Shown in pieces: positions 1 through 56,060 of a stretch of 64,000 nucleotides of DNA (positions are counted from its first letter, which is position 1; each line of letters opens with the position of its first letter). The stretch covers positions 288,001 to 352,000 of the forward strand of contig CBDCKN010000003.1 of assembly GCA_965218295.1 (NCBI GenBank). Reading direction: 5' to 3'. The notes under the pieces are model-generated. The model searched no databases, had not been told where the DNA came from, and saw only the letters and a program-made list of their open reading frames with translations. Source of the DNA: Longimicrobiales bacterium (GTDB lineage Bacteria > Gemmatimonadota > Gemmatimonadetes > Longimicrobiales > Gaopeijiaceae). Both the position numbers and the translations under genes were made by a program.

Positions 1-651
1 TCCGCCACCGCCGCGACGCCTCGCCCGCCGTACTCATGCGGCGCCTGCTCTCGCTCGACTACGTGATCGAGCATCCCGGCTTGCCTTGGCTGGCCACCGA
101 ATCCGAGAAAGTCGCCGCGTTCGAGGCCCTCGGCATCGAACGCGGGCTGCTGCCCGTCCGGGTTTACCGGGGTGCCGCCGGTGCGACTCGGCGCTACTTC
201 CCGGGTAAAGCTGCCCGTCGCGCTGGACGCCGAGAGCGCCGTCTTCGTCTACGCCGATCCCGGCCACGCGACCGCGACCGCGCTTCACTCCTGGGGTGCG
301 GCGCACCGCGGGCTCTGGCACGCGCTTGGGAGACGAGGCCGATCCGTCGAGGTTGTCGCGGTCGCTCGCCCCTCGAGAGAGCTTGAGCGGGCACGGCGAG
401 TCATGCGCCACTGGGCCGAGCCCTCCGGTCCAGCCGAACTCGACCCCCAGGTTCGCAAGGAGCTCGCCCGGATCGAGGAGGCCATTCTCGCGGGCGCGGT
501 CCCGATCCTGGAGAAGTACGGCGGTCTCCAGGCCGCCATGAAGCGCAGCGTGGCGCTGGAGAAACAGGCCCGACGGCAGGCCGCCCGCGCCTCAATCCGC
601 CGCGGCAGCACATGGCGGACCGCGCGCCTCGCCGGGGCTCGCTACCGATGA
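1..651 (+). CDS. Unknown mobile-element protein, copy 1 (runs off the window start; +1 frameshift near 200-207)
   Basis: ORFs 36..386 and 172..651 join into a clear paralogue of 12863..13795 (MRRLLSLDYVIEHP...KLPVAL...RLAGARYR). The alignment offset changes from 13145 to 13144 across the shift. Confidence 0.8.
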
Positions 652-960
652 GCGGCGCGCGACTTACGGCCGCACTGGAGTGCGCAAACGACGCGGGGGT
701 ACGATTCACACTTCGGCGCCCCGGCGATTCACACGGAGCTTCCCGCCTATCCGCTGGCGCGGCAGCGTCTTGCGCTTCCGCGGACAGGCCGGCCAGCGCT
801 GTACGGGCGGCACCGTCCGAGGCGGTAGCGACCCCCCAGTCCGAGGGCCTGGTACGGGTTCGGACGCAGGTGTGTTTGCGCACCCCTGCCCCCGTCCCCT
901 CGGGGTCGCTACCGGCCAATTATCTCTGCGCGGGAAGGCGGTTCAGCGCCGCTTCGAGGC
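648..960. other. Conserved structured cis-element downstream of the unknown gene, copy 1
   Basis: CGATTCACAC at 702-711 and 725-734; stem 823-835/902-914 enclosing two hairpins; collinear with 13792-14100. Confidence 0.7.
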
Positions 961-1503
961 GGCGGAGCACCAGTTCGCCGGCCCCCTGTCCGTCGGGCTA
1001 TCGGACATCGCCGAGCAAGGCCGGGGCCGCGATGGGCGGGGCCGCAGCCCACGCCGCCAAGCCTGGGATGCGCCCGTCCTGGGCACCCAAAAGGCCTTCC
1101 CGCATGGGATACCGTGACCGGAGCGGCATCGCCGCTCCGGCGACCGTGGTGCAACCGCAAAGCAGCCAGCGACATACGGAACCGCTGGCGCGCACACCGC
1201 AACGGTGGTTCCGTGCACATGCACCTCGATGTCGATGTGCACGCGCGGTACGCCACCGACCCCCGGTGATCGGCGGTCAAGATCGGCCCCCCGAGCCGCT
1301 CTCGACACGTCTGCAAAACAACCTTCCCATCATAGCGCCGGACTCGTGAATCGGGAAGCGCCAGCGCGGCGGGTCATCGGCTCGGAGCGGCCTGAACGCC
1401 GGAAGGCCCGGCGCACGCGGAATCGCCCGTCTGGCGAAGATGCCTTTTCAGCGCGAAGTTTCAGGCGCGCAGATCGTGCAGTCCATCATCGAGGAGGAAT
1501 CGA

Positions 1504-2668
1504 ATGATGGCACGCACGAAACGAAGCCGGCACAGTTACGGCGCCGGCGAATGGGGCCGGAACCGGGTCCGGGTGTTTCCCGATCCCAAGACCGGCCTGC
1601 TCCAGATCGGAGTGGCGCGAGAACGGGCGCAGGCTGAGCAAATCGCTCAAGCACCGCGACTGGGCACGGGCGAAGAGGCAGGCGGACGAGTTCGCCGCAG
1701 GCTTCGCCGGGCCGGAGATCGGGGGCGGAGCGGAAGCCGAGCCCGAGCCGCCCACGCTGGAGACGCTTTTTGACATCTACGGTGAAGAGGTGACGCCCAC
1801 CAAGGGCAGGCAATCACGGCGGCACGACAGGGCCGCGATGCGGATGTTCCTTGGGTTCTTCGGACGGGACCGCAGCCCGGCAACGCTCTCCCAGCGCGAC
1901 TGGGACAGGTTCATCAGGGAACGACGGGCGGGGCGGGTCGGCCCGAGCGAAAGGCCCGTATCGGATCGAACAATCCAACAGGACCTGAAGCTACTGCTGG
2001 CGATCCTCAACTGGGCCGCGAAGTCGAGGGACGAGCAGGGCCGCCTGCTCCTCGATTCGAACCCGCTGCAGGGTCTGAAGACGCCCAAGGAGAAGAACCC
2101 GACCCGGGTCGTCCTCGTGGAGGAGGAATACCTGGCGCTTCTAGAGGTGTCCCGCCAAGTCGACTGGCGATTTCGCGTCGCGCTGGTGCTCGTGCACGAG
2201 ACGGGACACCGCATCGGTGCCATCCGTAAGCTCCGGTGGTCGGACATCGACATGGAAGGCGGAATCATCCGGTGGAGGGCCGAGCACGAGAAGTCCGGCT
2301 ACGAACACCGGACGCCGGTGACCATCGAGGCGATCGTCGTCTTGGAAGAGGCGCGAAAGAGGAACCCTGGGATCGGCGACGCGCTTGTGTTACCCGCGCC
2401 CGGGAATCCTTCGACGTGCGTGCGCTCCGGGCGGGCGCGCTCCTGGTGGAGGAGAGCGGAGAGGCTCGCGGGGCTGGAGCCGAAGCACCGCAGAGGCTGG
2501 CACTCGCTGAGGCGGAAGTTCGCTTCGGACCTCATGGACCAGCCGCTCAAGGTGCTGTGCGAGCTTGGGGGCTGGAAGACGGCCAGAACAGTGCTCCAGT
2601 GCTACCAGCACGCCGACGAGGACCAGCTCAGGAACGCGCTCGACAACCGCCGCAGAGTTCGGGCCTGA
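1504..2668 (+). CDS. Tyrosine recombinase/integrase (one +1 frameshift near 1610)
   Basis: GAGGAGG RBS before 1504; motifs ETGHR, HSLRR, LGGW and terminal Y (QCY). Removing one G at ~1610 joins ORF 1504.. to the frame of 1790..2668 (IEWRENGRRLSKSL...). Confidence 0.9.
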
Positions 2669-2671
2669 ACC

Positions 2672-2699
2672 CAATTAGCGGGAATCAATTGGCGGGAAT
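2672..2699 (+). repeat. Tandem 14-bp repeat just after the integrase stop, candidate arm-type binding sites
   Basis: CAATTAGCGGGAAT (2672-2685) followed by CAATTGGCGGGAAT (2686-2699). Confidence 0.6.
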
Positions 2700-2707
2700 C
2701 CGGCACG

Positions 2708-4042
2708 TCACGCTCGTAAGTTCAATGCGAGCAAAAGGATGCACATCTGCCACCGCATGCCCGCAAGGCCTTCGTCAACTGCTGTTCTAACGCGGTCATA
2801 GAGCTCCTTCACTCGTTCGACAGCTTCACGGCCGGCCGAGTGTCCATGGTCCGGGGCGGATAGGCGAGCGCGCCGGCCGGCAGCACCACGAACCGCTCCC
2901 CCTCGATCTCCCGAAGCGTGATCCCCCAGGTGGTCGCCTCGAGCCGCTCCAGGGTCTGGCGTGCCTCCCCGATATCCAGGTCGAGGGCGGCGGCCGTCTG
3001 GATCCGGGCCTGGATGCGCGCCGACAGCCAGTGCATCGTCGCCCAGCTCCCGCCGCAGATGCCAAGCCAGAGGCTCAGGCCGACGACCAGGGGCCGGAGC
3101 CAGGCCTTGAGCAGGAGGGCGCGCATCCGACCGGTCGCCACCGCCGTATCGGCTTCGATGGTATGCAGCGCGTTCCTCGCAACGCGCCGCGAGTTCGCGC
3201 CGAGCCGCTCGAGCTCGCTCGCGGTCAATTCCTCGATCGCCTGGCGTTCGGTCTCCAGCCGTCTCCGCAATCGCTCGGTCAAGTCGTTCGCGTTTGAAGT
3301 CATGTGCGTATAGCTCTCCTTTCAGACGCCACCGGTCCCTGGTCGTGGGATCCAGGGCCGTCAGGTAGTCCTGGCCCTGGCGCGGCACCTCCAGGCCCGC
3401 CTCCCGCAGGGCGGCGACGATATCGGCCCGGTTCCGCACCGTGCCGTGCTCGACGCGCTGGAGCAGGTAGTCCCGGATCAGGTCGCGGGGCTCGGACTCC
3501 AGCCCGAGGCCGGTCCTGAGCCGCGCCGCCTCGACGTAGGCGCGGTGACCGGGGTGCTGCACCCTGGCCCGCGCCGGGTCGTCCGGCCGGCTCCAGCCGT
3601 GTTCGGCGTTGAAGGCGTCGCGGAGCGGGTCGAACGTCTTCCGCCACCCGGGGGGCGCGATGTTGAGGCTCCGGCCGGTCTCCAGGTCGCACCGCGCGGC
3701 CAGGACATGCACGTGAGCGCCGCCGCCGCGCTCGCGGTGCAGCACGGCGGCCCAGGCGTAGCGGTCGGGTTCGAGCCCGGCCCAGGCCGTCTGCTCGAAG
3801 GCATCGATAACCGCGCCGATCTGCGCGTCGGTCGGAGTGTCGTCGGGTGCCCAGGCAATCACGCCCGACGTGTACTTGTGCTCGAACCCCAGCGCATCGG
3901 CCACCGCAGCCGCCTGATGGGGGTTCCCCCGAAAGACCTCCACGCCCGCGCGGAGTTGACCCGCCGCGTCCCGCGCCCCGAGGAGGTAGTCGGCCGCCGC
4001 CCGGGCCGAGCCGGTTCCGCGGGCCAGGAACTTAATGTGCAT
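2708..4042 (-). CDS. Relaxase, ColE1 MbeA/MOBP-like; C-terminus probably truncated
   Basis: N-terminal AADYLL tyrosine motif, KYTSGVI, and VLHRE...HVH His motif; overlaps the mobC stop. Confidence 0.85.
   Translation of the reverse strand: MHIKFLARGTGSARAAADYLLGARDAAGQLRAGVEVFRGNPHQAAAVADALGFEHKYTSGVIAWAPDDTPTDAQIGAVIDAFEQTAWAGLEPDRYAWAAVLHRERGGGAHVHVLAARCDLETGRSLNIAPPGWRKTFDPLRDAFNAEHGWSRPDDPARARVQHPGHRAYVEAARLRTGLGLESEPRDLIRDYLLQRVEHGTVRNRADIVAALREAGLEVPRQGQDYLTALDPTTRDRWRLKGELYAHDFKRERLDRAIAETAGDRTPGDRGIDRERARAARRELAARCEERAAYHRSRYGGGDRSDARPPAQGLAPAPGRRPEPLAWHLRRELGDDALAVGAHPGPDPDGRRPRPGYRGGTPDPGAARGDHLGDHASGDRGGAVRGAAGRRARLSAPDHGHSAGREAVERVKELYDRVRTAVDEGLAGMRWQMCILLLALNLRA
2809..3303 (-). 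CDS. MbeB-like mobilisation protein overprinted inside the relaxase gene
   Basis: GGAGAG RBS; N-terminal coiled coil plus one hydrophobic helix; same nested position as ColE1 mbeB. Confidence 0.7.
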   Translation of the reverse strand: MTSNANDLTERLRRRLETERQAIEELTASELERLGANSRRVARNALHTIEADTAVATGRMRALLLKAWLRPLVVGLSLWLGICGGSWATMHWLSARIQARIQTAAALDLDIGEARQTLERLEATTWGITLREIEGERFVVLPAGALAYPPRTMDTRPAVKLSNE

Positions 4043-4370
4043 CGGGGTCGGGGCGTCCGACGGGGGCCAACGCCGCGAGCGCCCGGTCGATGGCGACCAG
4101 GTGGGCGACGATCTCGACGGCCTCGGCGTTCGCTTTGAAGGTATTGGCCCAGCGGGCGATCTGGTTCAGGTTCGCCCCGATCCGCGCCAGCTCGCGGGTG
4201 CGCTCTCGCTCCACCTCGGTCGCCGGGGCGGTCCACGTCCGCGTACGCGCCATGGCCTGCCGGAGCAGCGCCGACAGCGACACGCCAGCGGCCGCGGCCT
4301 TGGCCCGCCAGTCGGCGAGCTCGGCCGGCGATACGCGGGCGGCCGCAGTGACGGTGCGGCGATCGGCCAT
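4032..4370 (-). CDS. mobC: MobC relaxosome accessory protein
   Basis: RHH-like N-terminus (GVSLSALLR) and RIGANLNQIAR motif; lies directly upstream of the relaxase. Confidence 0.9.
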   Translation of the reverse strand: MADRRTVTAAARVSPAELADWRAKAAAAGVSLSALLRQAMARTRTWTAPATEVERERTRELARIGANLNQIARWANTFKANAEAVEIVAHLVAIDRALAALAPVGRPDPDAH

Positions 4371-4439
4371 CAGGACGCATCGCCAGAGGAGAAAGGGGCG
4401 CGAGCCCCGCCCGCGAACTCCGCCGGAGGGCGGACATCC

Positions 4440-4510
4440 GGGGGATCGAAGGGGGCGGAGCACCCCTCGCCAGCCCCAATGTTGCACATTGGGTAGGCTG
4501 GCTTAGGCAC
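4440..4510 (+). promoter_or_regulatory. Putative oriT, ColE1-like, predicted nic at 4501/4502
   Basis: Perfect IR CCCAATGT (4475-4482)/ACATTGGG (4486-4493), then CTGG^CTTA as in the ColE1 nic; upstream of mobC. Confidence 0.7.
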
Positions 4511-4856
4511 CATAAGGGTGCCAGACAGCCCCCCGGCGAGCGCGCCGGACGGCCTCCGGCAGCGGGAATCTCGGGTCGGCGGAATCTCCATACCCCTACA
4601 CGGAGAAGCCCTTCTCACGCGGTGTCAACAGCGTGAATCGAGGCGATTTCCCAAGGGTTCCAGCGCCGTCCCAGAGTCGGATCGGCCTCCGCCAGCGCCG
4701 CCTCCATCGCCCGCTGACTGATGGCGGACAGAGACCGGGAGGCCGAACCGATCCGCTGTTTCCGGGCTCGCAGCCGCGCGTTGGTTGTAGAGGTCGTGGT
4801 CTACAGAACGGATCGTAGATAGGTTTCTCTACACGCCTCGGTCATGGAGGAGTCGC

Positions 4857-5312
4857 GTGCAGCCTGCATCTCCGAATCATAGCACAGATCTGAGGAGCTT
4901 CCTGTCAAGAGCTGCGGAGGCTGCGTCGTACTCCGGCAAGAAGATGATGGAGTCTGCCGGTCTAAGTTGGCAGTCCCTCGCTGCATGGAAGGCCGGAACC
5001 CGAAGACCCCGTGCTGAGAGCATCCATGCGGTCGGTCACGCCCTGCTGCTTCGTGGTGATAGGATCCGCCGGATTGGCCTTGAGTTGATTCGGGCGGCTG
5101 AGCAGGCGTCTGGCCAGGGGAGGCCTACACCTGCGACCGATGATGGCCCGCAGCGCGTACTGTTCGCTCCGGCACGGGCCGCAGCCGAGACCTCCCAACG
5201 GCTGCACGACGATGGTGCGGAGGGTGCTCCCAACGACCGGCATGACTCGGGAAGGGCCTCGACAACCACCGGTAACTCGGAGGGACTGAGTCTTGGATCG
5301 CGTCACACCTGA
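4857..5312 (+). CDS. XRE-like HTH protein, possible R-M controller
   Basis: GGAGG RBS; SAGLSWQSLAAWKAGTRRP resembles an XRE HTH; overlaps the vsr start. Confidence 0.55.
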   Translation: MQPASPNHSTDLRSFLSRAAEAASYSGKKMMESAGLSWQSLAAWKAGTRRPRAESIHAVGHALLLRGDRIRRIGLELIRAAEQASGQGRPTPATDDGPQRVLFAPARAAAETSQRLHDDGAEGAPNDRHDSGRASTTTGNSEGLSLGSRHT

Positions 5313-5730
5313 GCAGCGTAGCAAGATGATGGCGGCCGTACGCTCCAAGGACACGAAGCCGGAACTGTTCATCCGCAGAGCACTACACGCCCGAGGCTAC
5401 CGATTCCGCCTCCATCGCCGCGACTTGCCGGGCAAACCGGACATCGTGTTCCCGTCCCGAAAATCCGCGATCTTCGTCAACGGTTGCTTCTGGCACGGGC
5501 ACGGCTGTCCGTCCGGCGCACTGCCGGCCACCCGGCGAGCTTTCTGGAAAGCAAAGATCGGCCGAAATAAGGATCGGGACGCGGAGAACCGCCGTGAGCT
5601 TGAGGCGGCGGGGTGGAACGTCCTAGTGGTATGGGAATGCGACTTGCGACGGCCGGAGCCGGTAGAGCGCGTCGTTGCTTGGCTGGAAGCCGATCGGCCC
5701 CGCAATCTTGGACGGGACGTAGAGCCATGA
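5293..5730 (+). CDS. vsr: Very short patch repair endonuclease
   Basis: RSKMMAAVRSKDTKPE, LPGKPD, FVNGCFWHGH, VVWEC. Confidence 0.95.
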   Translation: MDRVTPEQRSKMMAAVRSKDTKPELFIRRALHARGYRFRLHRRDLPGKPDIVFPSRKSAIFVNGCFWHGHGCPSGALPATRRAFWKAKIGRNKDRDAENRRELEAAGWNVLVVWECDLRRPEPVERVVAWLEADRPRNLGRDVEP

Positions 5731-6911
5731 ACGGGCCAGACCGTCCGATTACCGTTGTTGATCTGTTTTCCGGTGCCGGGGGCATGTCCTACGGGTTCAA
5801 AGCGCATGGCGCGTTCGAGATGATCGGCGCTGCCGATGCGGAGATCGGAAAACCTACATCCGGCAACGGACGGCTACAATGCAACACCACCTATCGGAAC
5901 AACATCGGAATCGACCCCAAGCGCGTTGATCTCGCGGACGTTACTCCGACCGATGTGCGCGACGTGCTGGGAATCGGTACGCGCGCGGTCAACGTCTTGA
6001 GCGTGTGTCCGCCCTGCACCGGGTTCACACGAACCAACCCGCAGAATCATCTTCGGGACGATTGCCGCAACGGGCTCGTGTCCAGGGCCGCAGGCTTTGC
6101 CGTAGCCTTGGACGCGGACATCGTAGTAATGGAGAACGCGCGCGAACTCTTACGCGGGAATTTCCTGCATCACTATCGCGCCTTCCGCGAGCGTCTGGAG
6201 GATAACGGCTACAGCGTGTTCGGGCGGAATTACATGCTGAACCGCTTCGGGCTTCCGCAAGTGCGCGAACGGGCCATCGTGATTGCCTCCAAGGAAGGAT
6301 TGCCCCTCTACACGCTGGAGAGCATGTGGGACGGCTGGAGCGTGGAAGAAAGCGCCAAGACCGTTCGCAGGGCGCTCTCGGTCGCCTCGGGAGCGAAGGG
6401 AGCGGACCACCGTTACCCAGGGTTCGCGTCAGAAACCGTCAAACGGCGGATTGCCGCCATACCGCCTGACGGCGGCTCTTGGATGGACCTGTTGGAGCAT
6501 CCTGATGCGGAGCAACTCTTGACCGGATCCATGAAGAGGATCGCGGAGGCCGGGAGATTCGGTTCGTACCCGGATGTCTACGGGCGGATGGCGTGGGACA
6601 AACCCGCCCCTACGATCAAACGGGAGTGCGCACATATCGGAAACGGCAGGTATGCTCACCCGGAACAGGACCGGCTTTGCACGGTCGCGGAAATGGCAGT
6701 TCTGAACGGCTTTCCTCACCACTATCAGTTCAACGGGTCATCACTGGCGAACACGTATCGCCATATCGGGGACGCGGTACCCCCGCTGGTTTCCTATCAG
6801 CTCGCGCATCTCTGCCGGTGGATTCTGACGGGCGAACGACCCAGCATCCAAGAACTCGTCTTGGCTGACACAAGCTTGCGGTTGTCAGATCTCGTGCGCG
6901 ACGCGGCATGA
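5727..6911 (+). CDS. DNA (cytosine-5) methyltransferase
   Basis: DLFSGAGG (motif I), PPC (IV), EN (VI), QVRER (VIII), IGDAVPP (X); ATGA overlap with vsr. Confidence 0.95.
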   Translation: MNGPDRPITVVDLFSGAGGMSYGFKAHGAFEMIGAADAEIGKPTSGNGRLQCNTTYRNNIGIDPKRVDLADVTPTDVRDVLGIGTRAVNVLSVCPPCTGFTRTNPQNHLRDDCRNGLVSRAAGFAVALDADIVVMENARELLRGNFLHHYRAFRERLEDNGYSVFGRNYMLNRFGLPQVRERAIVIASKEGLPLYTLESMWDGWSVEESAKTVRRALSVASGAKGADHRYPGFASETVKRRIAAIPPDGGSWMDLLEHPDAEQLLTGSMKRIAEAGRFGSYPDVYGRMAWDKPAPTIKRECAHIGNGRYAHPEQDRLCTVAEMAVLNGFPHHYQFNGSSLANTYRHIGDAVPPLVSYQLAHLCRWILTGERPSIQELVLADTSLRLSDLVRDAA

Positions 6912-7610
6912 CGACCCCACCGGACTCCACGGAGCAGAGATACCTCGACGAACTGCTTGCCGCGATGCGTGGCCCTTGCGAGACCACGTTCCCTACGTCC
7001 CCGGATGCCGAGACGCAGGCAGCCGAACTGGGGTTCCCGTCCGATCCCACCTTCGCTTCACCCTCGCCGTTCCTCAGCCCGCGATTCGAGAAGGAGTTCC
7101 GAACAACACTGCTCATTCACGATTACTTCCTGAGAGCGCCACTGGCGACGAACTCGTTTGAGGCGGCGTTCGTACGCGCAGCACATGCCGCAGGTCACGA
7201 CATTCGGAAAGCGCCTGACGGTCAGCGTTTTTGGGATGTCGAGATGGACGGGCTCCGAATCAGCCTGAAGTCCACCGCGGCAGCGAATCTGCGCGTCGGG
7301 TCACTGCACATTTCCAAGCTTTGCGAGGCAGCATGGATTCAGGACGCTCGCAGTGCGGCCCACCGAGAAGACAAGACCAAGCGCTTGTTCGAGGAGTATA
7401 CCGCCGCAGTGGGTGCTATCATTCAACTTCGGCTGTTCAAGAAGAAGGCCTTCTACGAAATGGTGAGGATCCCCACCTCTCTCTTGGCTCAAGTCGCGGA
7501 TGTTCCTCGTTCCAAGTTCGCGCCGGAGGGCCCGTCCATTGGAATCCCGGTTGGCCAAGACCCGCCGGACTTCACGTTGAAACTCGATAGATCCGACGCG
7601 AAGGTCACGT

Positions 7611-8988
7611 GAGGTTGGGTCAATAGGTGTGTAAACGTATTAGGCGGCGTTCTTCCGCTGTTGGTGTGAGACGGGCTTTCCGTCTTCGAACTTTCCTCCT
7701 TCAAATACGTCCTTGAGGAGGTGAGGAGCGTCGAGCCTTCGGAACCGCTTCTCAGCCACCAAGAGCAACTTCCAGATTAGCGCCGTAGCGCTCTCGACCC
7801 GCTTGAACCGCTTCGCTGCTGTCGTCCTGAGCCGTACCGCGGCGAACGGGCTCTCGACCACGTTCGTCGTGCGTAGATGCTTCCAGTGGTCCTCGGGGAA
7901 GTCGTAGAACGCTACCATCCGCTCCCAGTCGTCCTCGAGTACGTCCACTGCTTTCGGATACCACGGCCTATAGCGTCGGGCGAACACCTCGCGGGCCTTC
8001 AGGGCCTCGGCCCGGCTCGGTGCGTAGACCACGGCCCGGAGAAGATCCTTCGCCTCGCCCTGCTCCCGCTGAGGTAGTCGGTCCAGCACGTTCCTCATCT
8101 TGTGGTTCCAGCACCGTTGCTCGCCCGCCTCAGGCCATACCTGCCGTACTGCGCCCCAGATCGCCGCGTTGCCGTCCGCCATCAAAAGCCGGGGCGCCTC
8201 GATGCCGCGTGCCTTCAGATCCCGCAACACCTCCGACCAGGACTCGACCGACTCTCGGTAGCCCGATCTCAGGGCCAACACCTCCTTCGTCCCGTCTCGC
8301 ATCGCGCCCAGCACCACCAGTAGCGCCGCCTTGTCCCGCTCGAGCCCTGCCTTCACGTAGATCCCGTCCGCCCATACGTAGACGACCTCACGGCCCTCCA
8401 GGCGACGCTGGCTCCATTCCTCGAACTCCGCCGTCCATCCCGCCCGCAGTCTCCGAATCGAAGACTTCGACAGCGGTGCCCCCTCGCCTAGCAGTCCCCG
8501 CATCGCCAGCTCGAAGTCTCCCTCTGCCAGTCCGTGCAGATACAGCTCCGGAAGCAGAGCGCCCAGCTCCTTCGTCCGCCTCGCGAACAACGGCAGCACC
8601 CGACTCTCGAACCGCTCCTCGACGCCCCGAACCCGAGGGCGTCGGAGTGTGATCGTGCCCGAGCTCATCGCCAACCGCCTCAGCTTGCCGTATCCGTTGC
8701 GGTAGCCCTCGGTCGCGTCCACCACCCTCCTGCGCTCTGACTTCTCTCGCCCTAGCAACTCCGTGACTTCCTCCTCCAAGATCTGTTGAATGAACTCCTG
8801 CGCCTTCTCCCGAACCACTTCTTCCAGAACTTCCCACACGGGCGTCCTGGACTCACCCTCGGGTCCCACCGTATTCTTCCTCACGAGGCGTCGTTCCTTT
8901 CCCCCGGGCTGTCACCCGGAGTTCGCTGGTTATTACTCAGCGGAAAGGTACGTCGCCTCTCTTTTTACACACCCTTTGATCCTAGCTC
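7611..8988 (-). mobile_element. IS256-family insertion sequence, copy 1 (1378 bp)
   Basis: Imperfect IRs GAGGTTGGGTCAATAGGTGTGTAAA / GAGCTAGGATCAAAGGGTGTGTAAA; 8-bp TSD GGTCACGT at 7603-7610 and 8989-8996. Confidence 0.95.
7640..8884 (-). CDS. IS256-family (Mutator-type) transposase
   Basis: YRNGY, WADG, MADG, QRCWNH, RTTNVVES. Confidence 0.95.
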   Translation of the reverse strand: MRKNTVGPEGESRTPVWEVLEEVVREKAQEFIQQILEEEVTELLGREKSERRRVVDATEGYRNGYGKLRRLAMSSGTITLRRPRVRGVEERFESRVLPLFARRTKELGALLPELYLHGLAEGDFELAMRGLLGEGAPLSKSSIRRLRAGWTAEFEEWSQRRLEGREVVYVWADGIYVKAGLERDKAALLVVLGAMRDGTKEVLALRSGYRESVESWSEVLRDLKARGIEAPRLLMADGNAAIWGAVRQVWPEAGEQRCWNHKMRNVLDRLPQREQGEAKDLLRAVVYAPSRAEALKAREVFARRYRPWYPKAVDVLEDDWERMVAFYDFPEDHWKHLRTTNVVESPFAAVRLRTTAAKRFKRVESATALIWKLLLVAEKRFRRLDAPHLLKDVFEGGKFEDGKPVSHQQRKNAA

Positions 8989-9151
8989 GGTCACGTTGGC
9001 GAACATCGACAAGCGCGTGTGTTCGGTCGTAGGAACCTGGCAACTCGCCCGGAGGGCGTAAGCGCCGATTGACGGTCGGAAGACGGGCTTTCTTGGCCGC
9101 TGCCCAGGACTACGATTCGACCGTCGACGACGAGGGGATGGTGGCGGCCAG

Positions 9152-9188
9152 CGCGACTAGCAGCTAGCTAGCTAAGCTAGCTGTCGCG
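9152..9188. repeat. Quasi-palindromic GCTA microrepeat
   Basis: CGCGAC-TAGCAGCTAGCTAGCTAAGCTAGCT-GTCGCG; four CTAG within 24 bp. Confidence 0.7.
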
Positions 9189-9372
9189 CCCCAAGAGTGG
9201 GGACTGCCCTGACCGGAGTGGGCTCGTGCATCTGGGACGGCCCTACACCCGTCCTTTCACGGCCTAGGAGGGCCAACGACATCCGTTTCGTTGCGGCGGA
9301 GAAAATGGGGGGTAACGCTCCACATCCAACTGCGTAAGGCATTTACAGTAAACCGCTTACAGCACTCATGAA

Positions 9373-9565
9373 AGCTGCCAGAACGGCTCGCGGCTCTTGC
9401 CGAAGAGCTGGTTGATCAGGGAGGCGACGCTGTAGGCGAGCGAGTAGGTGTCGAGCAGCGGATCGTCGAGCGGGTTCCACTGCCAGGCACCGCCGAGGCC
9501 GATCTCCAGGTAGTCGTCCCCGCGGCCGGCCTTCTCGAGGATCCCCCGCACGTCGTGGCAGAAGC
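9373..9565 (-). pseudogene. Internal fragment of a TraD/VirD4-like coupling protein
   Basis: FCHDVRGIL...WQWNPL...EPFWQ resembles the NP...FW region after Walker A in coupling proteins; no start and no ATPase remainder. Confidence 0.6.
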
Positions 9566-9686
9566 ACGGCTAAGTCTTCGCAAGTCCCTATGGGACAAAG
9601 ACTTGGAAACACCTTACGGAGACGTGTATCACATGGTGTGTCCGAAGGCCGTAAATCGTGTTACCCGTTGGGTTTAGGACAGAAAC

Positions 9687-9739
9687 CCACGGACCACGGA
9701 CCCACGGACGACGGATGGGCGGCTGCCACGGACCACGGG
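9687..9739 (+). repeat. Cluster of CCACGGA heptamer repeats
   Basis: CCACGGA x3 at 9687-9708, a degenerate copy, then CCACGGA CCACGGG at 9726-9739. Confidence 0.65.
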
Positions 9740-9863
9740 CCGTTCGTTTCACGCACATCCAAAGCACCAGCGCGACAGCCGGCCTTGACAAACTGTCGTT
9801 GCCCGCTGCGATTCGGATGCGAACCGTAAGTCCCTCCGCAGTCCACTGAGTCGGGAAGGCCCC

Positions 9864-11805
9864 ATGCAGCGTCTGAACCTGGTTGTCGCAGTGCTCTCAG
9901 TTCGCCGCCGCGTGCGGTGACGGTGGATCTCCGACGCCGACGGGTCCACCCGCCCCGCCACCCAACCGTGCGCCGACCGTGTCGGCCGCGATTCCGGACC
10001 AGAGCGTGGAGGCGGGAGCGGAGGTGACGGTGGGTGTTTCCGGGGCCTTCTCCGACCCCGACGGGGACGCCCTCAGCTATGGGGCCACCTCGGACGCCTC
10101 GGATATTGCCACAGCGAGCGTCTCCGGAAGCGATGTCACGGTGACCGGCGTGGCTCCGGGGACGGCGACGATCACGGTGACCGCGACCGACCCCGGAAGC
10201 CTCAGCGCCACGCGGACCTTCGAGGTGACGGTCAGGAGCGCCAACCGGGCGCCAACCGTATCGGCCGCGATTCCGGACCAGAGCGTGGAGGCGGGAGCGG
10301 AGGTGACGGTGGACGTTTCCGGGGCCTTCTCCGACCCCGACGGGGACGCCCTGAGCTATGGGGCCACCTCGGACGCCCCGGATGTTGCCGCGGCGAGAGT
10401 CTCCGGAAGCGGTGTCACGGTGACCGGCGTGGCTCCGGGGACCGCGACGGTCACCGTGACCGCGACCGACCCCGGAGGCCTCGGCGCCACCCAGAGATTC
10501 GAGGTGACGGTCGTGAGCGCCAACCGGGCGCCGACCGTGTCGGCCGCGATTCCGGACCAGAGCGTGGAAGTGGGAGCGGAGGTGACGGTGGACGTTTCCG
10601 GGGCCTTCTCCGATCCCGACGGGGACGCCCTGAGCTACGGGGCCGCCTCGGATGCCTCGGATGTTGCCACGGCGAGAGTCTCCGGAAGCGATGTCACGGT
10701 GAGCGGAGCGGCCCGGGGGACGGCAACCGTCACGGTGACCGCGGCCGACCCCGGAGGCCTGAGTGCCACCCAGACCTTCGAGGTCGCCGTCGAAGCGGAA
10801 GCGGACCTCGACGCTCTCTTCGCCCCGCCCACGGAGACGGAGATCGCACAGGTGGTGGCGGAGTGGGAGACCCGTGAGCCCGAGGTCAGCGGGGTTCGCC
10901 TTGAACTCGACATGTTGCACGTGTACGTGCCCACCTCGCCCCTGGGAGGCGCACCCTTCACGGTCCGGGTCCGGATCCTCTCCCACACCGTAGGGGGGTC
11001 CCGGCACTACGGTGCGGTGGTGACCCCGCCCGGTGCGGAGCCCGGCACCCTACCCGTCATCCTCCATGCCCACGGTGGGGACGACGGCGTGGAGCTCGGG
11101 CAGGTTTTTCTGTTGAATTCGTTCCTGCAGGGCCACCGCGCGGCCTTCGTGGTACCGTCGTATCGCTCCGAGCCCCTCCAGTTCGAGGACCAGGAATTCT
11201 TGTCCGAGGGTCTACCCAGCCCGTGGGACCGGGACGTCGACGACACCATGTCACTTCTCTCTGTCGCGATCGAACAGGTGCCGGAGCTGGACGGGGAGCG
11301 GGTAGCGGTCGTGGGGTTCAGCCGGGGGGGCGCCGTGGGTCTCCTGACGGCCGCGCGCGATCCGAGGATCGACGCCGTCGTCGAGTTCTTCGGCCCGACG
11401 GACCTGTTCGGCGAGTATGCGCGTGAGATCTTCGAGGAGGCGCTGGGCGGCGAGCTCCGGGATCTTCCCGGTCTCGACTACCTCAACGAGCACGTCATCG
11501 TGCCGTGGCAGCTGGGGGACCTCTCCGATGCAGAGGCTCGGCTGGAGCTGGTACGCCGATCCGGAGTGTACTTCGTCGATCGCCTCCCGCCGGTCCAGCT
11601 GCACCACGGGACCGCGGACACCGTCGTGGCCTACAGCCAGGCCCAGCGGCTGATCGACGCGATGGAAGAGGCGGGAAAGGGGGAGGAGGAGTTCGAGGCC
11701 CACCGCTATCCTGGCGCTGGTCACGAAATCGAGGCCCTTATCGTACAAGGGGCTCCCACGCGTGCGGTCGACTTCCTTCGTCGCTTCCTCTTCGAGCTTC
11801 CGTAG
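9864..11805 (+). CDS. Lipoprotein with three Ig/cadherin-like repeats and a C-terminal S9-like alpha/beta hydrolase (frameshift in signal peptide near 9900)
   Basis: MQRLNLVVAVLS then lipobox AAAC in the next frame; FSDPDGDALSY repeats; GFSRGG nucleophile, HGTAD, AGH. Confidence 0.85.
9964..10790 (+). repeat. Three tandem 279-bp (93-aa) intragenic repeats
   Basis: Units start at 9964, 10243 and 10522 (NRAPTVSAAIPDQSVE...). Confidence 0.95.
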
Positions 11806-11995
11806 GCCGTATGGAGGAGTCGGCGACCTAACCGCTTCGGGGACTCGGATAGGTGAGTCAGGCAAGCCGTGGAGGGATTACGATCCGGGATCGGCTGGCC
11901 GCCACTGGGGCGTGCCCAAGCAAGGTGGCTACGCGCGCTGGCTAGAGGACAACCTGATCCCAGGCTACCGTTCGATTCAAGGGGGCCATGATTGT
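11806..11995 (+). pseudogene. Fragment resembling the internal region of an N6/N4 DNA methyltransferase
   Basis: GDLTASGTRIGESGKPWRDYDP...GRHWGVP recalls the variable region of beta-class methyltransferases; no catalytic motifs present. Confidence 0.5.
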
Positions 11996-12146
11996 CCCGG
12001 GAACGCTTGCGGGGGGTGTTTTGCCATGCCGCTGGCGGAGCCTCCGGACGGGCTGCTTGCCCTGCTGAACATCTCTAAACGTTACAAGCACTTAGGACAT
12101 TTCCTACGGGTTGACGCGCTTGCCGACGCCTCTTCACCGTTACGGT

Positions 12147-12345
12147 ATGGAGACGCTGGAGCAGCAGTTCAATTCGCAAGTGCGCGCGTTCCTCGGGTGC
12201 ACGGGCCTGAGGCCGACGACGTTCGGCATGAAGGCGTTGGGCGACCCGAACCTGGTGCGCCAGATCGGGCGCGGCCGATTCGTCGTCGCTGAGGACGGCG
12301 GACCACGTTCTGGCATTCTTGGCCGGCTACGACCGGGAGTCCGGG
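12147..12345 (+). pseudogene. Small Cro/XRE-like HTH protein, frameshifted
   Basis: METLEQQFNSQVRAFL...TFGMKALGDPNLVRQIGRGR, continuing as SLRTADHVLAFL in another frame. Confidence 0.6.
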
Positions 12346-12645
12346 CGGTGCGGTTGGCCTTCCCACGAGGTCAAGGCTGATCTGTTCGGTCATCACGGCA
12401 TTGGTCTAATGGTATCGCACCGATTCAGGACACACAGTCGAACGCGGCGGTCGCCCCACGGCCATCCTTCTCGATTGACGGCATCCCCAGTGCCGAGCGG
12501 CTTGCCCCGAGCCCCGCTCAAGGCCTCGCTGGCGGAGGGTGGCCGGACCTCGATTTCCGTATCTCGGTGCTCCGCAAGCAGGTGGAAAATGGCCTATATC
12601 CTACGCTATTGCGTGAATTGCCAACACCGTTTTGCGTGGATGGGT

Positions 12646-12780
12646 ATGGAGAACCTGACGAAGCAGTTCGAGCAGCGCCATGGCGACGTTACTTCGGCGC
12701 ACGCGGCTGACGCGGTCGGAGGCCGGGGAGCGCGCGATCGGGGACCGGAAGTTTGTGGGAGATGTGCGGCGGGGCCTGGA
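12646..12780 (+). pseudogene. Second small HTH paralogue, frameshifted and truncated
   Basis: MENLTKQFEQR / ATLLRRTRL...AIGDRKFVGDVRRG aligns with the 12147 protein. Confidence 0.55.
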
Positions 12781-12862
12781 CCCGGAGCCCTCCGGTTCCT
12801 CTCGACCGAGCTCGCATCACGTATCTCAGAGCCGACCTGGCGCTGGTGACGGAGGACTCGGG

Positions 12863-13795
12863 ATGATCGCCCATCTCCGGGGACGCGAGAAGACGCTCGA
12901 GCCGTTAGGCTGGACAGGTCGCCGTTCCGAGTGGATCGCGCTCGTCTGCTTCCACAGCGGCGTGTTCACCCGCGCCCAATGGACCCAGTTCATGGACGCG
13001 CACCCCGAACAGGTGCGCCGCGGCGTCCACGCGCTGATCGCGCAGGGCGTGGCCGCCGAAGAGACTGTGCCTGGGATACGGGGCATCGGCCGCGTGTCGC
13101 GGATCTTCTCCCGGCGCATCTACCGCGCCCTCCGCGCCGAGCACATCCGCCACCGCCGGACCGCCTCGACCGAGGTGCTCATGCGCCGCCTCCTCTCGCT
13201 CGACTACGTGATCGAACATCCCGACCTGCTGTGGCTGCCGACCGAACCGGAAAAGGTCGCGGCGTTCGAGGCGCTCGGCATCGAGCGCGAGCTCCTGCCC
13301 TCCCGGCTCTACCGGGGAGCCGGCGGCGACACCCGGCGCTGCTTCCCCCTCAAGCTGCCCGTGGCACTTGAGGCCGGCGGCGCCGTCTTCGTCTACGCAG
13401 AGCCCGGCCACGAGACCACGACCGCGCTCCGTTCCTGGGGCAATGCGCACCGCGGACTCTGGCGGGCGCTCCAAGAGCGCGGCCGGTCCGTCGAGGTGGT
13501 CGCCGTTGCCAGCACTTCGCGGGAGACGGAACGAGCCAAGAGGGTCATGCGCGGCTGGGCCGGGGCCTCCGGACCGGCCGAGCCCGACGCCGAGATCCGG
13601 GAGGAGCTTGCCCGGATCGAGCGCGCGATCCTTCAGGGCGCGGTCCAGATCCTCGAGGAGTTTGGAGGCTTGCAGGCCGCCTTGAAGCGCAGCGTATCGC
13701 TGACGAAGCAGACCCGGCGGCGGTCTGGACCCGGGTCCATCCACCGCGCCAGCACCTGGCGGACGGTGCGTCTCGCAGGGGCACGCTACCGATGA
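12863..13795 (+). CDS. Unknown mobile-element protein, copy 2 (intact, 310 aa); possibly wHTH plus nuclease-like, replication-relaxation type
   Basis: GGAGG at 12851-12855 before the ATG; paralogue of 1..651; the functional guess is inference. Confidence 0.8.
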   Translation: MIAHLRGREKTLEPLGWTGRRSEWIALVCFHSGVFTRAQWTQFMDAHPEQVRRGVHALIAQGVAAEETVPGIRGIGRVSRIFSRRIYRALRAEHIRHRRTASTEVLMRRLLSLDYVIEHPDLLWLPTEPEKVAAFEALGIERELLPSRLYRGAGGDTRRCFPLKLPVALEAGGAVFVYAEPGHETTTALRSWGNAHRGLWRALQERGRSVEVVAVASTSRETERAKRVMRGWAGASGPAEPDAEIREELARIERAILQGAVQILEEFGGLQAALKRSVSLTKQTRRRSGPGSIHRASTWRTVRLAGARYR

Positions 13796-14100
13796 CCGGC
13801 GCGCGTCTTACGGCCGTACTGGCGCGTGAAAACGACGTGGGGGGTCGATTCACACTTTGGCGCTCCGGCGATTCACACGGGACCCCACGCGTATCCGTCG
13901 CGACCGCAGCGTCTTGCGCCTTCGTGGCCCGGCCCCGCGTTGTCGGACGGGCCGATCAGGCAGTGGTGGGAGCGACCCCCCAGGCCGAGGGCCTGCTACG
14001 GGCGCGGGGCTAGGTGTGTTTTCACACGCTGGCCCCCGCCCTCCGGGGGTCGCTCCCAGTCCATGGATCCCTTGGCGGGAAGGCCGTCCAGCGCCGCTGT
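13792..14100. other. Conserved structured cis-element, copy 2
   Basis: CGATTCACAC at 13846-13855 and 13869-13878; stem 13967-13979/14046-14058. Confidence 0.7.
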
Positions 14101-15668
14101 GAGCGGCGTATCAACGGACCGATCCGGCTTCCGGGTCTCGGCTCTCGTCGGCCAGGTACGCGGCCCAGTCGAAGGGCAGGCTGTTCATGGTGCCGAGGCA
14201 TGGGGCCTGATCGCGCTCCACGCCGTTCGACGAACGCGAGGTAGCTAAGGCCCTTCGGGCTCGTCGGACACAGGGTCATCGTGCTTGCGCCGAGCATCCT
14301 CCACGCCCATACAAAGTCAATTAGACGCGCTCTGCCGTTGTGCCACGATCCCTCGTCAAGGCGGCAATACCACTGATTCGGAGCGCGACGCGTCGCAGGT
14401 GCGTTCGGCGGCTTCTCAGCTTCGAACGGAATTGCATCCTTCAGCTTCTCGAAACGCTCATGACAAAGGTCGACAGCCGCAGGATAGAAAGTGATCCGTA
14501 TCTTCCCGGGTTCGTCAATTGTAACGGAATGCGACCCGCGGACACACACGTCGTCGGGCAGGGTGATCGTCCGGTGCAGATAGGTAATGCCGGATTTCGT
14601 ATAGTATGTCCGGACACTGTAGTCCAACGACACTTTCACATCCTGCCACACCTTCGCCACTCCGTGCTCGCCGGCCTTCCGATTCAAGTCGCGAGCGCCT
14701 GGGCGGTTGGCGGATGACGTATGGGGATCGTCCGAAGTCCGTACCTGCCTGGCCAACAGCATGCCATCGCCGTCGGGCCGGGCGTAGTGCCCCACGACGT
14801 CGAAGTCGAACTTCCCGCGGGCCACGGCCCCCATGTCGAGCTCGGCCGTGAGGATCCCTTCGGCATCGAAGAGGGGACCGGCCAGGCAGTCTCCAGCCGG
14901 GTCGTAGATGGCACTGCCACCAGGGCACAGGGTGTCGGGCCAGGACTCGAGCTCCCCAGCGATCTCAAGGTCGTCGGGGTACATGTCGCGGGTCACGTAC
15001 TGGTTACACCCCAACACGAAGCAGCGCCCCTCCAGGGCGATGTGCTGCAGTGTTCCCTGCCAGCGGCCCCGGTAGTCGGCGGTGGGTGCGAGGTAGATCT
15101 CCACCCCCTTCCCGTACATGGCCATGCGGGCGAGGGGCATGTAGTTCTCCCAGCAGATGAGGCCACCTACACGGCCGAATGGGGCGTCGACCGTCGTGAG
15201 CGTGCTCCCGTCTCCCTCGCCCCAGATCAGGCGCTCCGCCGCCGTGGGCTTGAGCTTTCGGTGCTTGCCCAGAAGCGAGCCGTCGGCGCCGAAGTACAGG
15301 AGTGTGCAGAAAAGGGTGCCTCCGCTGTAGGTGGAGTCGCGCTCCACGACGCCCACGGCCAGGTATACGCCCGCCTCATGGGCCGCTTCACCCATGCGCT
15401 CGGTGGCCGGACCCGGCACCTCGACCGCCGTGTCCCAGTAGCGCTGCCAGACGCGCCGGCCGGCGTCGCTCCGGCCCCCCACGGCGGTACCGAAGGCCAG
15501 GCCCCAGGGATAGCCGCCGACATACGCCTCGGGAAAGACGACCAGTCCGGCGCCGTCGGCCGCGGCCTGGGCCGTAAGGTCGGTGACCTTCTCGGTGGCC
15601 CCCTCCCGGTCGAAGAAGGTGGGGGATGCCTGCACGACGGCGGCCGTCACGGTGCGATTGTCGCTCAC
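14022..15668 (-). CDS. Nitrilase (homology 14772-15668) with its C-terminus replaced by island sequence
   Basis: FPEA, HRKLKPT and ICWEN give the E-K-C triad; homology ends at GHYARPD; GGAGAG RBS before GTG 15668. Confidence 0.9.
   Translation of the reverse strand: MSDNRTVTAAVVQASPTFFDREGATEKVTDLTAQAAADGAGLVVFPEAYVGGYPWGLAFGTAVGGRSDAGRRVWQRYWDTAVEVPGPATERMGEAAHEAGVYLAVGVVERDSTYSGGTLFCTLLYFGADGSLLGKHRKLKPTAAERLIWGEGDGSTLTTVDAPFGRVGGLICWENYMPLARMAMYGKGVEIYLAPTADYRGRWQGTLQHIALEGRCFVLGCNQYVTRDMYPDDLEIAGELESWPDTLCPGGSAIYDPAGDCLAGPLFDAEGILTAELDMGAVARGKFDFDVVGHYARPDGDGMLLARQVRTSDDPHTSSANRPGARDLNRKAGEHGVAKVWQDVKVSLDYSVRTYYTKSGITYLHRTITLPDDVCVRGSHSVTIDEPGKIRITFYPAAVDLCHERFEKLKDAIPFEAEKPPNAPATRRAPNQWYCRLDEGSWHNGRARLIDFVWAWRMLGASTMTLCPTSPKGLSYLAFVERRGARSGPMPRHHEQPALRLGRVPGRREPRPGSRIGPLIRRSQRRWTAFPPRDPWTGSDPRRAGASV
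14245..14660 (-). CDS. Hypothetical lower-GC ORF segment, in frame with the upstream nitrilase
   Basis: GTG at 14660; protein-like composition (VAKVWQDVKVSLDY...) and lower GC than flanks; 3' end unclear. Confidence 0.4.
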
Positions 15669-15676
15669 GGTTCTCT

Positions 15677-15710
15677 CCAGTGTTCCGTTGCCAAAGCAAC
15701 GGGACACTAA
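15677..15710. repeat. MITE family A, minimal hairpin
   Basis: AGTGTTCCGTTGC-CAAA-GCAACGGGACACT. Confidence 0.75.
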
Positions 15711-15711
15711 C

Positions 15712-16653
15712 TCAGCGGCTACAGTAAACGAACTCTGCCACCACGTCCCCCACTATGAGCAACGTCTGCGCGCTCGTGTTCTCCGGGGTGTCGTAGGGCG
15801 TGTGCCAAAGGCTGTTCTTCGACCCGTAGTCGAAGTCGATGACGTTGATGGTGGGGATTCCGGCGTCGTTGAGCTTCAGATGGTCGTCCACGACCCGGGC
15901 TGTCTCGTCCAACGGGAAATAGCGCCGATAGCCCAGGTCCGCAGCGATTCCCCAAACCCGCTGCACGAGCTGCGGCGCAGCCTCGAGGGAGTAGGCCTCC
16001 ACGGGAAATCGGGGGTCGGCGTCGCCCACCATGTCCAGAAGCACGGCGAAGTCCGGGGGGGCTTCTGAGCCCCTTCCCGTAGCGTAGTGGGCAGCCCCGA
16101 GGAACATGTCGGCCGTGGTGGGCCCGTAGTCCTCGCCGTCGCTGAAGAGAAGATCCACGCCCACGGGCGGAGCCTGCTCGGCGAACATCCGCGCCAGCTC
16201 TAGGAGCACGGCCGTGCCTGACGCCCCGTCGTTGGCACCGGGCACCGGCTTCTCCCGATCGTCGTCGTCTCGGCTCTGGTCCGCCGTCGGCCGCGTGTCC
16301 CAGTGCGTGAGGAGGAGGAGGCGTCGATCGCTCTCGAGGCCGAAACGCGCGATGACGTTCGTGAGGCTCAGGGAGTCTCCGTCGCCGGTGACGTGCTCGA
16401 ACTCGTCGAGGAACACGGTGTCGGCGAGCTCGCTGAGCTGCTCCACCATCCAGGCGAACTGGCGGGCGTGGCCCTCCATCCCCGGCACGCGCGGGCCGAA
16501 GGCCACCTGCGCCTGGAGGTCCTGAAAGGCCCGCGTGGCGTCGAAGGCCGGGCGGTCCACCCTGACCGAGATGGTCATCTCTTCGGAATCCCCACCTCCG
16601 CACCCTACCACCAGAAGCTGTAGAGCCATCATCAACGGCCATCGCTTCGTCAC
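15712..16653 (-). CDS. M28-family peptidase / glutaminyl cyclase-like lipoprotein
   Basis: Lipobox VVGC; HWDTRP, GANDGASG, DGEDYG, DDH, WHT. Confidence 0.9.
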   Translation of the reverse strand: MTKRWPLMMALQLLVVGCGGGDSEEMTISVRVDRPAFDATRAFQDLQAQVAFGPRVPGMEGHARQFAWMVEQLSELADTVFLDEFEHVTGDGDSLSLTNVIARFGLESDRRLLLLTHWDTRPTADQSRDDDDREKPVPGANDGASGTAVLLELARMFAEQAPPVGVDLLFSDGEDYGPTTADMFLGAAHYATGRGSEAPPDFAVLLDMVGDADPRFPVEAYSLEAAPQLVQRVWGIAADLGYRRYFPLDETARVVDDHLKLNDAGIPTINVIDFDYGSKNSLWHTPYDTPENTSAQTLLIVGDVVAEFVYCSR

Positions 16654-16736: not shown

Positions 16737-16829
16737 CTAGTGTTCCGTTGCCGTAGTTCTCGAGCCACCAAGAAAGTCGGATGCACCGTGCCCTCGACCG
16801 GCCGAGACACTTTGGTAACGGAACACTAG
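16737..16829. mobile_element. MITE family A, internally deleted copy (93 bp)
   Basis: CTAGTGTTCCGTTGCC...GGTAACGGAACACTAG; interior matches both ends of 49243-49410. Confidence 0.8.
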
Positions 16830-16907
16830 AACCCCTGGGCGGTCCCGGGGTTTCTTCCGGGTCGGGGCCCGCGTATCCTCCCGATCATCCCCTTCCTGGA
16901 GCCGTTC

Positions 16908-34169: not shown

Positions 34170-34218
34170 ATAGTGTTCCGTTTCCAAAGTTCGCGAGCCA
34201 CCAAGAGGGCCGGGGCGC
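34170..34218. repeat. MITE family A, left-end fragment
   Basis: TAGTGTTCCGTTTCCAAAGTTCGCGAGCCACCAAGAGGGCCGGGGCGC matches 49244-49291. Confidence 0.8.
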
Positions 34219-49242: not shown

Positions 49243-49410
49243 CTAGTGTTCCGTTGCCGAAGTTCGCGAGCCACCAAGAGGGTCGGGGCGCCGTGGGATC
49301 AAGGCGGGACGACGCGGCGCAGCGCAAGCTACGGCAAGGAGTCCCAACGCCGAGCCCACGGATGCACCGTGCCCTCGACTGGCCGAGATACTTCGGCAAC
49401 GGGACGCTAG
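49243..49410. mobile_element. MITE family A, longest copy (168 bp)
   Basis: TIR CTAGTGTTCCGTTGCCGAAGT / ACTTCGGCAACGGGACGCTAG (19 of 21 match). Confidence 0.8.
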
Positions 49411-49778
49411 AACGGGCGGCGCTTGGAGACGCGAAGGTCGTCTTGGCTCCCTATCTCCCCGTCCGGCCCGTAGGAGTGGATCGCGAAAGAGTCGGCCCAC
49501 GACTGGTAGCTGTAGGCCCGTCCCCAGGGATCGATGCCAGCGTCTCCGGAGAAGTTGGTCTCCAGCCAGGCACTCCACTCGCGGCGATTCGGAAGTCGAT
49601 ACGTCTCGCGCTGCTGCCTCCGGACGGCTCTGGACAGATCCTCCATCTCCCGCTCCGCATTCCAGACGAGAACGGGTTGGAGAACCGGCATGGCCTTGTC
49701 GATCATCGCCTGGCGACTGTCGGGAAAATACAACGCCGCGACGAAGCCGAAGATGACCATGAGAACGAGTTTGCTCAC
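49407..49778 (-). CDS. GspG-like (T2SS pseudopilin domain) small protein
   Basis: DPWGRAY, SYGPDG..G..DD; N-terminal TM. Confidence 0.75.
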   Translation of the reverse strand: MSKLVLMVIFGFVAALYFPDSRQAMIDKAMPVLQPVLVWNAEREMEDLSRAVRRQQRETYRLPNRREWSAWLETNFSGDAGIDPWGRAYSYQSWADSFAIHSYGPDGEIGSQDDLRVSKRRPF

Positions 49779-55829: not shown

Positions 55830-56060
55830 GGACTAGAGGCCTGTTGAGGAAGTGGGGCGAGCCGCGTTAGGAGCGCCACGGGGCCAGACCCTAGGCGGCG
55901 CCCCGAAGGCATAGCAATAGCTACGTCGAGGGGCGCCAACAACGGGGGCACCGCGCGAAGCGTGGTCGGCCCCGTGCCGCCCTAACCGGGCACCGACAGG
56001 GCGCCAGCCCTGTTGGTCGGGCGAAGGGGGGTTGCGGGCCCATAGCGCGTCTCTCTTCCT

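Follow-up and report, generated by a model that had tools for sequence, protein, structure and literature searches.

A covarying hairpin as a candidate MOBC-type origin of transfer behind a gene family without annotation in Gemmatimonadota and Acidobacteriota

A long hairpin with a paired, covarying outer stem recurs behind one unannotated gene family, here called X, in two bacterial phyla. As judged from sequence comparison, it probably works like the MOBC-type origin of transfer (oriT) of a divergent conjugation system, in which X would bind the DNA and a second protein, REL, would nick it. The hairpin belongs to a larger unit, element E, which occurs twice in the 64,000-nucleotide stretch analysed here (the window; G000 C3:288001-352000, G000 being the source genome). 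Copy 1 spans positions 652..938 (profile hit 658-938, E 1e-51) and copy 2 positions 13796..14083 (profile hit 13803-14083, E 1e-53). Copy 1 follows the 3' part of an X gene (1..651, plus strand) that starts upstream of the window and has a frame break near 205-209, as it is matched by tblastn in two pieces (residues 2-164 and 163-304); copy 2 follows an intact X gene of 310 codons (12863..13795, plus strand). According to two reports, few relaxase classes are as poorly understood as MOBC, with no covalent intermediate seen and the resealing of the strand left open (PMC12857230; PMC6736028). The collection described below offers roughly a hundred naturally occurring versions of this putative MOBC origin, for which a nick, a strand and a binding code are predicted, and it suggests a division of DNA binding and cleavage between two separately testable proteins.

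The initial annotation had described a 13-bp outer stem in each window copy, and both stems are present, 823-835 pairing with 902-914 in copy 1 and 13967-13979 with 14046-14058 in copy 2; the two compensatory changes by which it distinguished them were verified, both being Watson-Crick. Both copies fold far below dinucleotide shuffles (z of -3.7 to -7.7 on both strands, with RNA and DNA parameters). The annotation had also proposed a comparison with Rfam and a covariation analysis over further homologues. Rfam gave four weak matches in window positions 1-16000 and no known family over either hairpin copy. For the covariation analysis, a profile of element E returned 131 hits, 115 of them near full length, which dereplication at 95% reduced to 99; one of these, L067:5116-5373 (G000 C4), in which most of the interior is deleted and a perfect 19-bp stem is retained, was excluded from the alignment, which hence has 98 rows. 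Since the profile was seeded with 46 of the 54 X loci, its hits at the seed loci are partly circular; the Acidobacteriota count given below is free of this circularity. Over the 98 copies the outer stem is paired at 95.7%, with 69 cells changed on both sides vs 4 changed on one side (alignment A6), and slid control pairings are paired at 39-54%. On a tree built with the non-stem columns, joint changes in the outer stem fall on 16 branches, 14 of them ending Watson-Crick. The null gave 0.97 such branches on average and never more than 6 over 5000 draws, and slid control pairs on the same tree give 0-3. The covariation was thus found, and it supports the proposed selection on pairing.

Other parts of the initial description had to be revised. 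The structure is not confined to two copies, as the source genome has 14 with an intact stem: a strict inverted-repeat pattern matches 26 times in its 3.57 Mb, and all 14 matches with a (A/T)(A/G)CGACC core coincide with element E profile hits, which makes this short pattern a specific finder of the origin in that genome. The conserved unit is also wider than the 92 nt first delimited. Element E runs from the X stop codon to a GGAAGG sequence, about 290 nt, and comprises three short repeats, of which one is inverted and two are direct, the long hairpin (823..914 and 13967..14058, with the minus strand as the predicted folding strand) and a small hairpin over the likely ribosome-binding site of the next gene (TCCC..GGGA plus GGAAGG, 14068..14083, in copy 2; GGGAAGG in copy 1). 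The repeat motif recurs in the apical loop of the long hairpin (875-883 and 14019-14027). The proposed inner hairpin CAG(G/T)CC-GAG-GGCCTG fell away, having a T.C mismatch in copy 1 with no compensation and being present in only 14 of the 98 copies, as did the conserved multi-branch shape, for the RNAalifold consensus retains the outer stem only and the interior has no single shared shape. The interior does fold (median z of -3.3 on the minus and -1.8 on the plus strand, 98 copies); in distant Acidobacteriota it is unrelated in both length and sequence. Two candidate readings of the unit were rejected: that the sharp junction at GGAAGG is the nick, because similarity often continues into a shared spacer, and that E is a MITE with terminal repeats, because its association with X and with the coupling gene persists in different phyla.

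X was found in 19 of the 201 Gemmatimonadota and 26 of the 251 Acidobacteriota genomes searched; its close relatives are mostly in Gemmatimonadota/Longimicrobiales records, with some in Acidobacteria and Gammaproteobacteria. Element E lies behind X at 50 of 54 X loci, and a gene for a coupling protein is directly next at 16 of these 50 and absent at 34. Most of the 16 lie within the arrangement virB-X-E-virD4-virB11-ardC-REL-xis-int. In full, intact integrative and conjugative elements (ICEs) read virB2, B3, B4, B9, B10, B5-like, B6, B8, X, E and coupling protein, followed by virB11, ardC, REL (an unknown protein of 300 aa), a xis-like gene and an integrase gene. No relaxase family of Pfam was found among the 17 ORFs of L010, a locus at which the virB8 stop overlaps the X start; two proteins, P0009 and P0020, are VirB8-X fusions of 532 aa. 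Among the Acidobacteriota, the strict inverted repeat is present at 21 of 27 X loci, with additional compensated variants, and 4 of 10 regions of 20 kb are ordered virB8..REL-X-repeat-virD4-virB11; in several, a small gene lies between hairpin and coupling gene.

This position recalls known MOBC regions, which are ordered oriT-mobB-mobC (PMC2262945; bioRxiv 2024.01.30.577996). Upstream of the coupling gene of annotated MOBC plasmids, the DNA folds into long branched hairpins. In six of seven such regions, among which CloDF13 and the closely related L100 nearly duplicate each other, a long hairpin carries arms GACCA(A/C)CC..GG(G/T)TGGTC, 59-83 nt apart. These arms (e.g. GCGCGACCACCCC..GGGGTGGTCGCGC) can be set beside those of element E (GAGCGACCCCC..GGGGGTCGCTC), of which the stem core CGACC-CCC/GGG-GGTCG is the MOBC arm core minus one base. 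The CloDF13 nick, GGGTG/GTCGGG as quoted in PMC5935869, falls inside an arm of this kind and on the mobB antisense strand. By analogy, the equivalent bond in E would be 832/833 in copy 1 and 13976/13977 in copy 2, both on the minus strand, with mirror positions at 904/905 (plus strand) and 14048/14049. Hairpin polarity in the known MOBC regions is mixed, the antisense strand folding better in L100 and L115 and the sense strand in L111, L113 and L114. Element E shares with a CloDF13-like oriT a large inverted repeat upstream of the coupling gene, with arms 60-85 nt apart, and a nick sequence on its arms; a nick-like sequence stands on both strands, as in IR2 of pMET1/HPI (PMC2262945). It differs in its distance from the coupling gene, 25-50 nt in Gemmatimonadota ICEs vs 270-440 nt. 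A single MobC, encoded right after mobB, serves the CloDF13-like systems, whereas here there are X and REL, both missed by MOBC profiles, and the relaxase candidates are encoded upstream or at a distance. No publication on element E was found in open-access literature listings; supplementary oriT sets (e.g. PMC7755788) may contain related origins.

The initial annotation had left the choice between a non-coding RNA and a folded single-stranded DNA site, either origin or nick site. The latter is favoured by the position upstream of the coupling gene, the MOBC-like core and the repeats that track the helix of X, and the former, in its sense-strand form, is disfavoured because the mismatches are of kinds that the opposite strand tolerates. 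In plus-strand letters they are CT 40, CC 23, AC 21 and TT 11 vs AG 5, GT 4 and GG 1; as distinct 1x1 types the two groups number 42 and 9 (binomial p 3e-6, the copies not being independent). On the minus strand the same mismatches are G.A, G.G and G.T, which are better-tolerated kinds. In the outer stem, C.A was counted 13 times vs 2 for G.T. For the interior, the minus strand is the better-folding one in 82 of 98 copies (flanking control, 64 of 98). This bias argues against a sense-strand mRNA structure; an antisense RNA would show the same bias.

A minus-strand antisense RNA, acting either as a regulator of X or of the coupling gene or as an aid to mobilisation, is a reading that we hold improbable. 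The strong covariation would fit such an RNA, as would the better folding of the minus strand, seen with RNA parameters too (36 of 49 copies), and in SGI1 a self-encoded small RNA is reportedly needed for mobilisation. However, the stem changes are nearly all double Watson-Crick, the stem core matches the nick-bearing DNA arms of MOBC plasmids, conservation is lacking in the interior, Rfam gave no match to the hairpin, and no promoter- or terminator-like site was found in 13700-14500, a weak test. Metatranscriptome contigs from four runs of two studies gave a summed depth of 3-6 per bin over both copies and of hundreds over the integrase, these being assembled contigs of related organisms by which level, strand and ends are not shown.

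The upstream repeats behave like protein sites and are predicted, from sequence, to be bound by X through its predicted recognition helix. Some 100-150 nt separate them from the predicted nick; they are found at 680..734 in copy 1 (inverted GTGCGCAAA at 680-688, direct GATTCACAC at 703-711 and 726-734) and at 13824..13878 in copy 2 (inverted GCGTGAAAA at 13824-13832, direct GATTCACAC at 13847-13855 and 13870-13878); those of copy 2 are of the TTCAC class, in accord with the HPEQVRR helix of its X. Among 43 X proteins of one clade, residue 50 is Arg with TGCGC repeats in 7 of 7 cases and another residue with A in 36 of 36, and residue 48 is Pro with TTCAC in 16 of 17 and His with TGC in 26 of 26. 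The Arg50 association occurs at three separate places in the tree, which gives three independent pairs (sign test, p 0.25), and with only three independent origins it cannot reach significance; for Pro48, one of two supported pairs agrees.

A protein whose gene directly precedes iteron-like repeats, and which tracks them, might also be an initiator, with E serving as a replication or single-strand priming origin of the excised element. Facing pairs of E, described below, resemble two-sided priming sites, and relaxases can double as initiators (PMC5714925; PMC5357655). Yet X has no primase or Rep match, no AT-rich melting region is evident, the core matches that of MOBC oriTs and the ICEs would then be left with no oriT candidate, so that we regard this reading as quite improbable.

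Returning to the MOBC-type reading, structure comparison of X as modelled by AlphaFold (pLDDT 90.5) identifies its N-terminal part as a winged helix like that of MarR (Z 7.8). The C-terminal domain, folded alone, is best matched by SdaI (Z 7.3, rmsd 3.9, 121 residues aligned), then by a Pyrococcus repair endonuclease (Z 6.7), and its matches over more than 100 residues are mostly restriction-type nucleases, with moderate Z scores that are all below 8. X as modelled therefore combines a winged helix (about residues 7-92 in copy 2) with a PD-(D/E)XK restriction-nuclease-like fold, the layout of MOBC relaxases, at moderate Z. Foldseek returned nothing at E<=0.001 for either model. PMC12857230 describes the MOBC protein TraX in similar terms, with an N-terminal winged helix, a restriction-nuclease fold and binding to repeats 70-120 bp from nic. 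By that description, X resembles the TraX of pAD1 oriT2 in its domains and, if the predicted binding and nick sites hold, in the placing of its repeats away from nic, and differs in that binding and cutting appear to be split between two paralogue-like proteins.

This split is suggested by the active-site residues. D114, E128, K131, R148 and Y150 are conserved in X. The position after the invariant Pro166, which by motif order would be the counterpart of the PD motif, is Asp in none of 104 sequences and V/I/L in 103, and Y-x-D/E stands where ExE is expected, so that X departs from the PD..ExE triad. The six MobC proteins compared all have PD..ExE (6/6), and REL keeps PD..NxE in 25 of 25 sequences, with Asn in place of the first Glu. 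The initial annotation had assigned use of the site to the adjacent protein; this stands better for a binding than for a nicking role, because X lacks the Asp after Pro166 while REL keeps PD..NxE. X and REL are candidate members of the MOBC relaxases. Comparison of shallow profiles with those of the six MobC proteins (hhalign) was not significant (0.4% for REL, 2.3% for X), and that of X with REL gave a probability of 37%, over the winged helix only. The nearest named Atlas cluster of REL is Replic_Relax (score 0.89), which is a lead only. Neither PF13814 nor NCBIfam matched X or REL, a PF13814 search of the source genome gave no match, and searches of Pfam, NCBIfam and PDB sequences with both proteins gave no meaningful family, TetR_C_33 falling under its cut-off. 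Relaxase profiles would hence score such ICEs and islands of Gemmatimonadota and Acidobacteriota as non-mobile.

That X itself nicks, through a rearranged active site, and forms with E a self-contained recombination or transposition module, E then being mainly not an oriT, seems to us very improbable. X and E do travel in places where REL is absent (14 intact stems vs one intact REL gene in the source genome; five other genomes have 2-8 REL genes each), and the conserved residues of X, the arrays and the facing pairs would suit such a module. Against this, REL keeps its PD motif and is encoded directly before X in Acidobacteriota, and the islands have an integrase of their own. The least probable reading, to which we give next to no weight, is a sense-strand mRNA leader or terminator governing translation of the coupling gene, which would fit the GGAAGG about 11 nt before the coupling-gene start of intact ICEs and the covarying pair of the small hairpin (C-G in 71 of 98 copies, T-A in 21, not found in 6, never mixed), but not the destabilising mismatches on the plus strand, the persistence of 34 of 50 copies where the coupling gene is absent or the small gene that intervenes in several Acidobacteriota. 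The small hairpin could have a side role in control of coupling-gene translation.

On the preferred, MOBC-type reading, X would bind the upstream repeats of E, the strand opposite to the coupling-gene mRNA would extrude or fold into the hairpin, and REL would cut the folded DNA at the GG^GTC of its stem. The cut strand would then enter the VirB channel with X and virB leading and the coupling gene and REL last, and recircularisation would occur at the same stem. A more elaborate scheme appears unlikely to us, though it merits statement: a MOBC relaxosome divided between two proteins, its adaptor code able to evolve, in which two helix residues of a nuclease-dead paralogue recognise the oriT repeats and so give a shared nicking enzyme its specificity. 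Islands with two facing adaptor-origin modules, and origin-cargo arrays, would then move on either strand by a helper relaxase and swap cargo at the stems, much as integrons exchange cassettes, but on the basis of conjugative origins.

Neither window copy is accompanied by transfer genes. Both belong to islands that lack virB, the coupling gene and REL, and that would consequently move only with a helper ICE or else are remnants. Copy 1 is followed by a spacer (939..1094) that by eye is like the 115-135-nt gaps in L022, L034, L038 and L045; in the contigs of two RNA runs 121 bases of 1005-1127 are omitted, which may reflect a related island. Beyond it lies, on the minus strand, the remnant of a convergent second E, which belongs to another clade and has lost its long stem (1095..1265; profile hit 1265-1116, E 2e-7; CCTTCCC at 1095), and then a tyrosine integrase gene in two frames (1504..2668, plus strand; PF00589) of the family that ends intact ICEs. 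With its broken X and integrase, copy 1 is probably decayed. For the islands in the window, neither an att repeat nor a tRNA target could be found. The source genome carries many copies and fragments of X, and with one intact REL and interrupted coupling genes its assembly holds no evident complete helper. The coupling gene breaks near residue 251-260 (C13:184628-185588, C15:528017-528736, C12:200073), and two of the three breaks are directly followed by a second integrase family that is also found at truncated X copies. A separate cluster of 18 tRNA genes occupies 4 kb at C9:276539-280522.

A facing arrangement is common where the coupling gene is absent: a further E lies downstream at 22 of 34 such loci, convergent at 21, and at none of 16 ICE-type loci. 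Several loci read X1-E-cargo-E-X2-integrase, and L019, L025, L028 and L037 carry E in arrays, three to six copies each, separated by cargo genes; the same cargo families recur behind E at different loci. Facing origins kept for mobilisation by two helper specificities, or for exchange of cargo at the stems, are candidate explanations. Islands with an integrase and an origin and with neither relaxase nor mating channel have been described as relaxase-less or oriT-only mobilisable islands (bioRxiv 10.64898/2026.01.13.699239, in extract); the window-type islands share this gene content, but differ in that a binding-protein gene is kept with each origin, in that there are usually two facing origins of different specificity, and in the occasional arrays of origins.

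TraX reportedly recombines oriTs (PMC5714925). Upstream of the 5' arm, window copy 2 and L017 are 56% identical; from there onwards they are 98-100% identical. A switch at this arm is seen in several further pairs, and a window scan has a weak peak at the 5' arm (4-5 copies vs up to 3 elsewhere). A strict triplet test found one mosaic among 98 copies, located away from the 5' arm, and segment correlations show no drop across that arm. These sequence patterns are only suggestive of recombination at the stem and do not pin the position of the nick.

The window also holds, at 2708-4487 on the minus strand, a separate MOBP-type module, in which a relaxase (PF03432) and MobC/NikA are accompanied by a small gene that overlaps. 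This relaxase (2708-4042) was rejected as the partner of E, since E occurs in ICEs that lack it and its mobC cluster was found at three loci only. At 5293-8884 lie genes for Vsr, a C5 methylase and a SmaI-like endonuclease, the last of which adjoins an IS256-family transposase, and that DNA recurs at 56060. The protein of 9883-11805 joins three Ig-like repeats of 93 aa to an alpha/beta hydrolase. X copy 2 is preceded by two degenerate copies of a small ORF (12146-12380, with no Pfam match, and 12647-12800), which may resemble small HTH repressors. A dispersed intergenic repeat unrelated to E, its copies 75-94% alike, is present at 16738-16832, 34171-34218 and 49244-49413.
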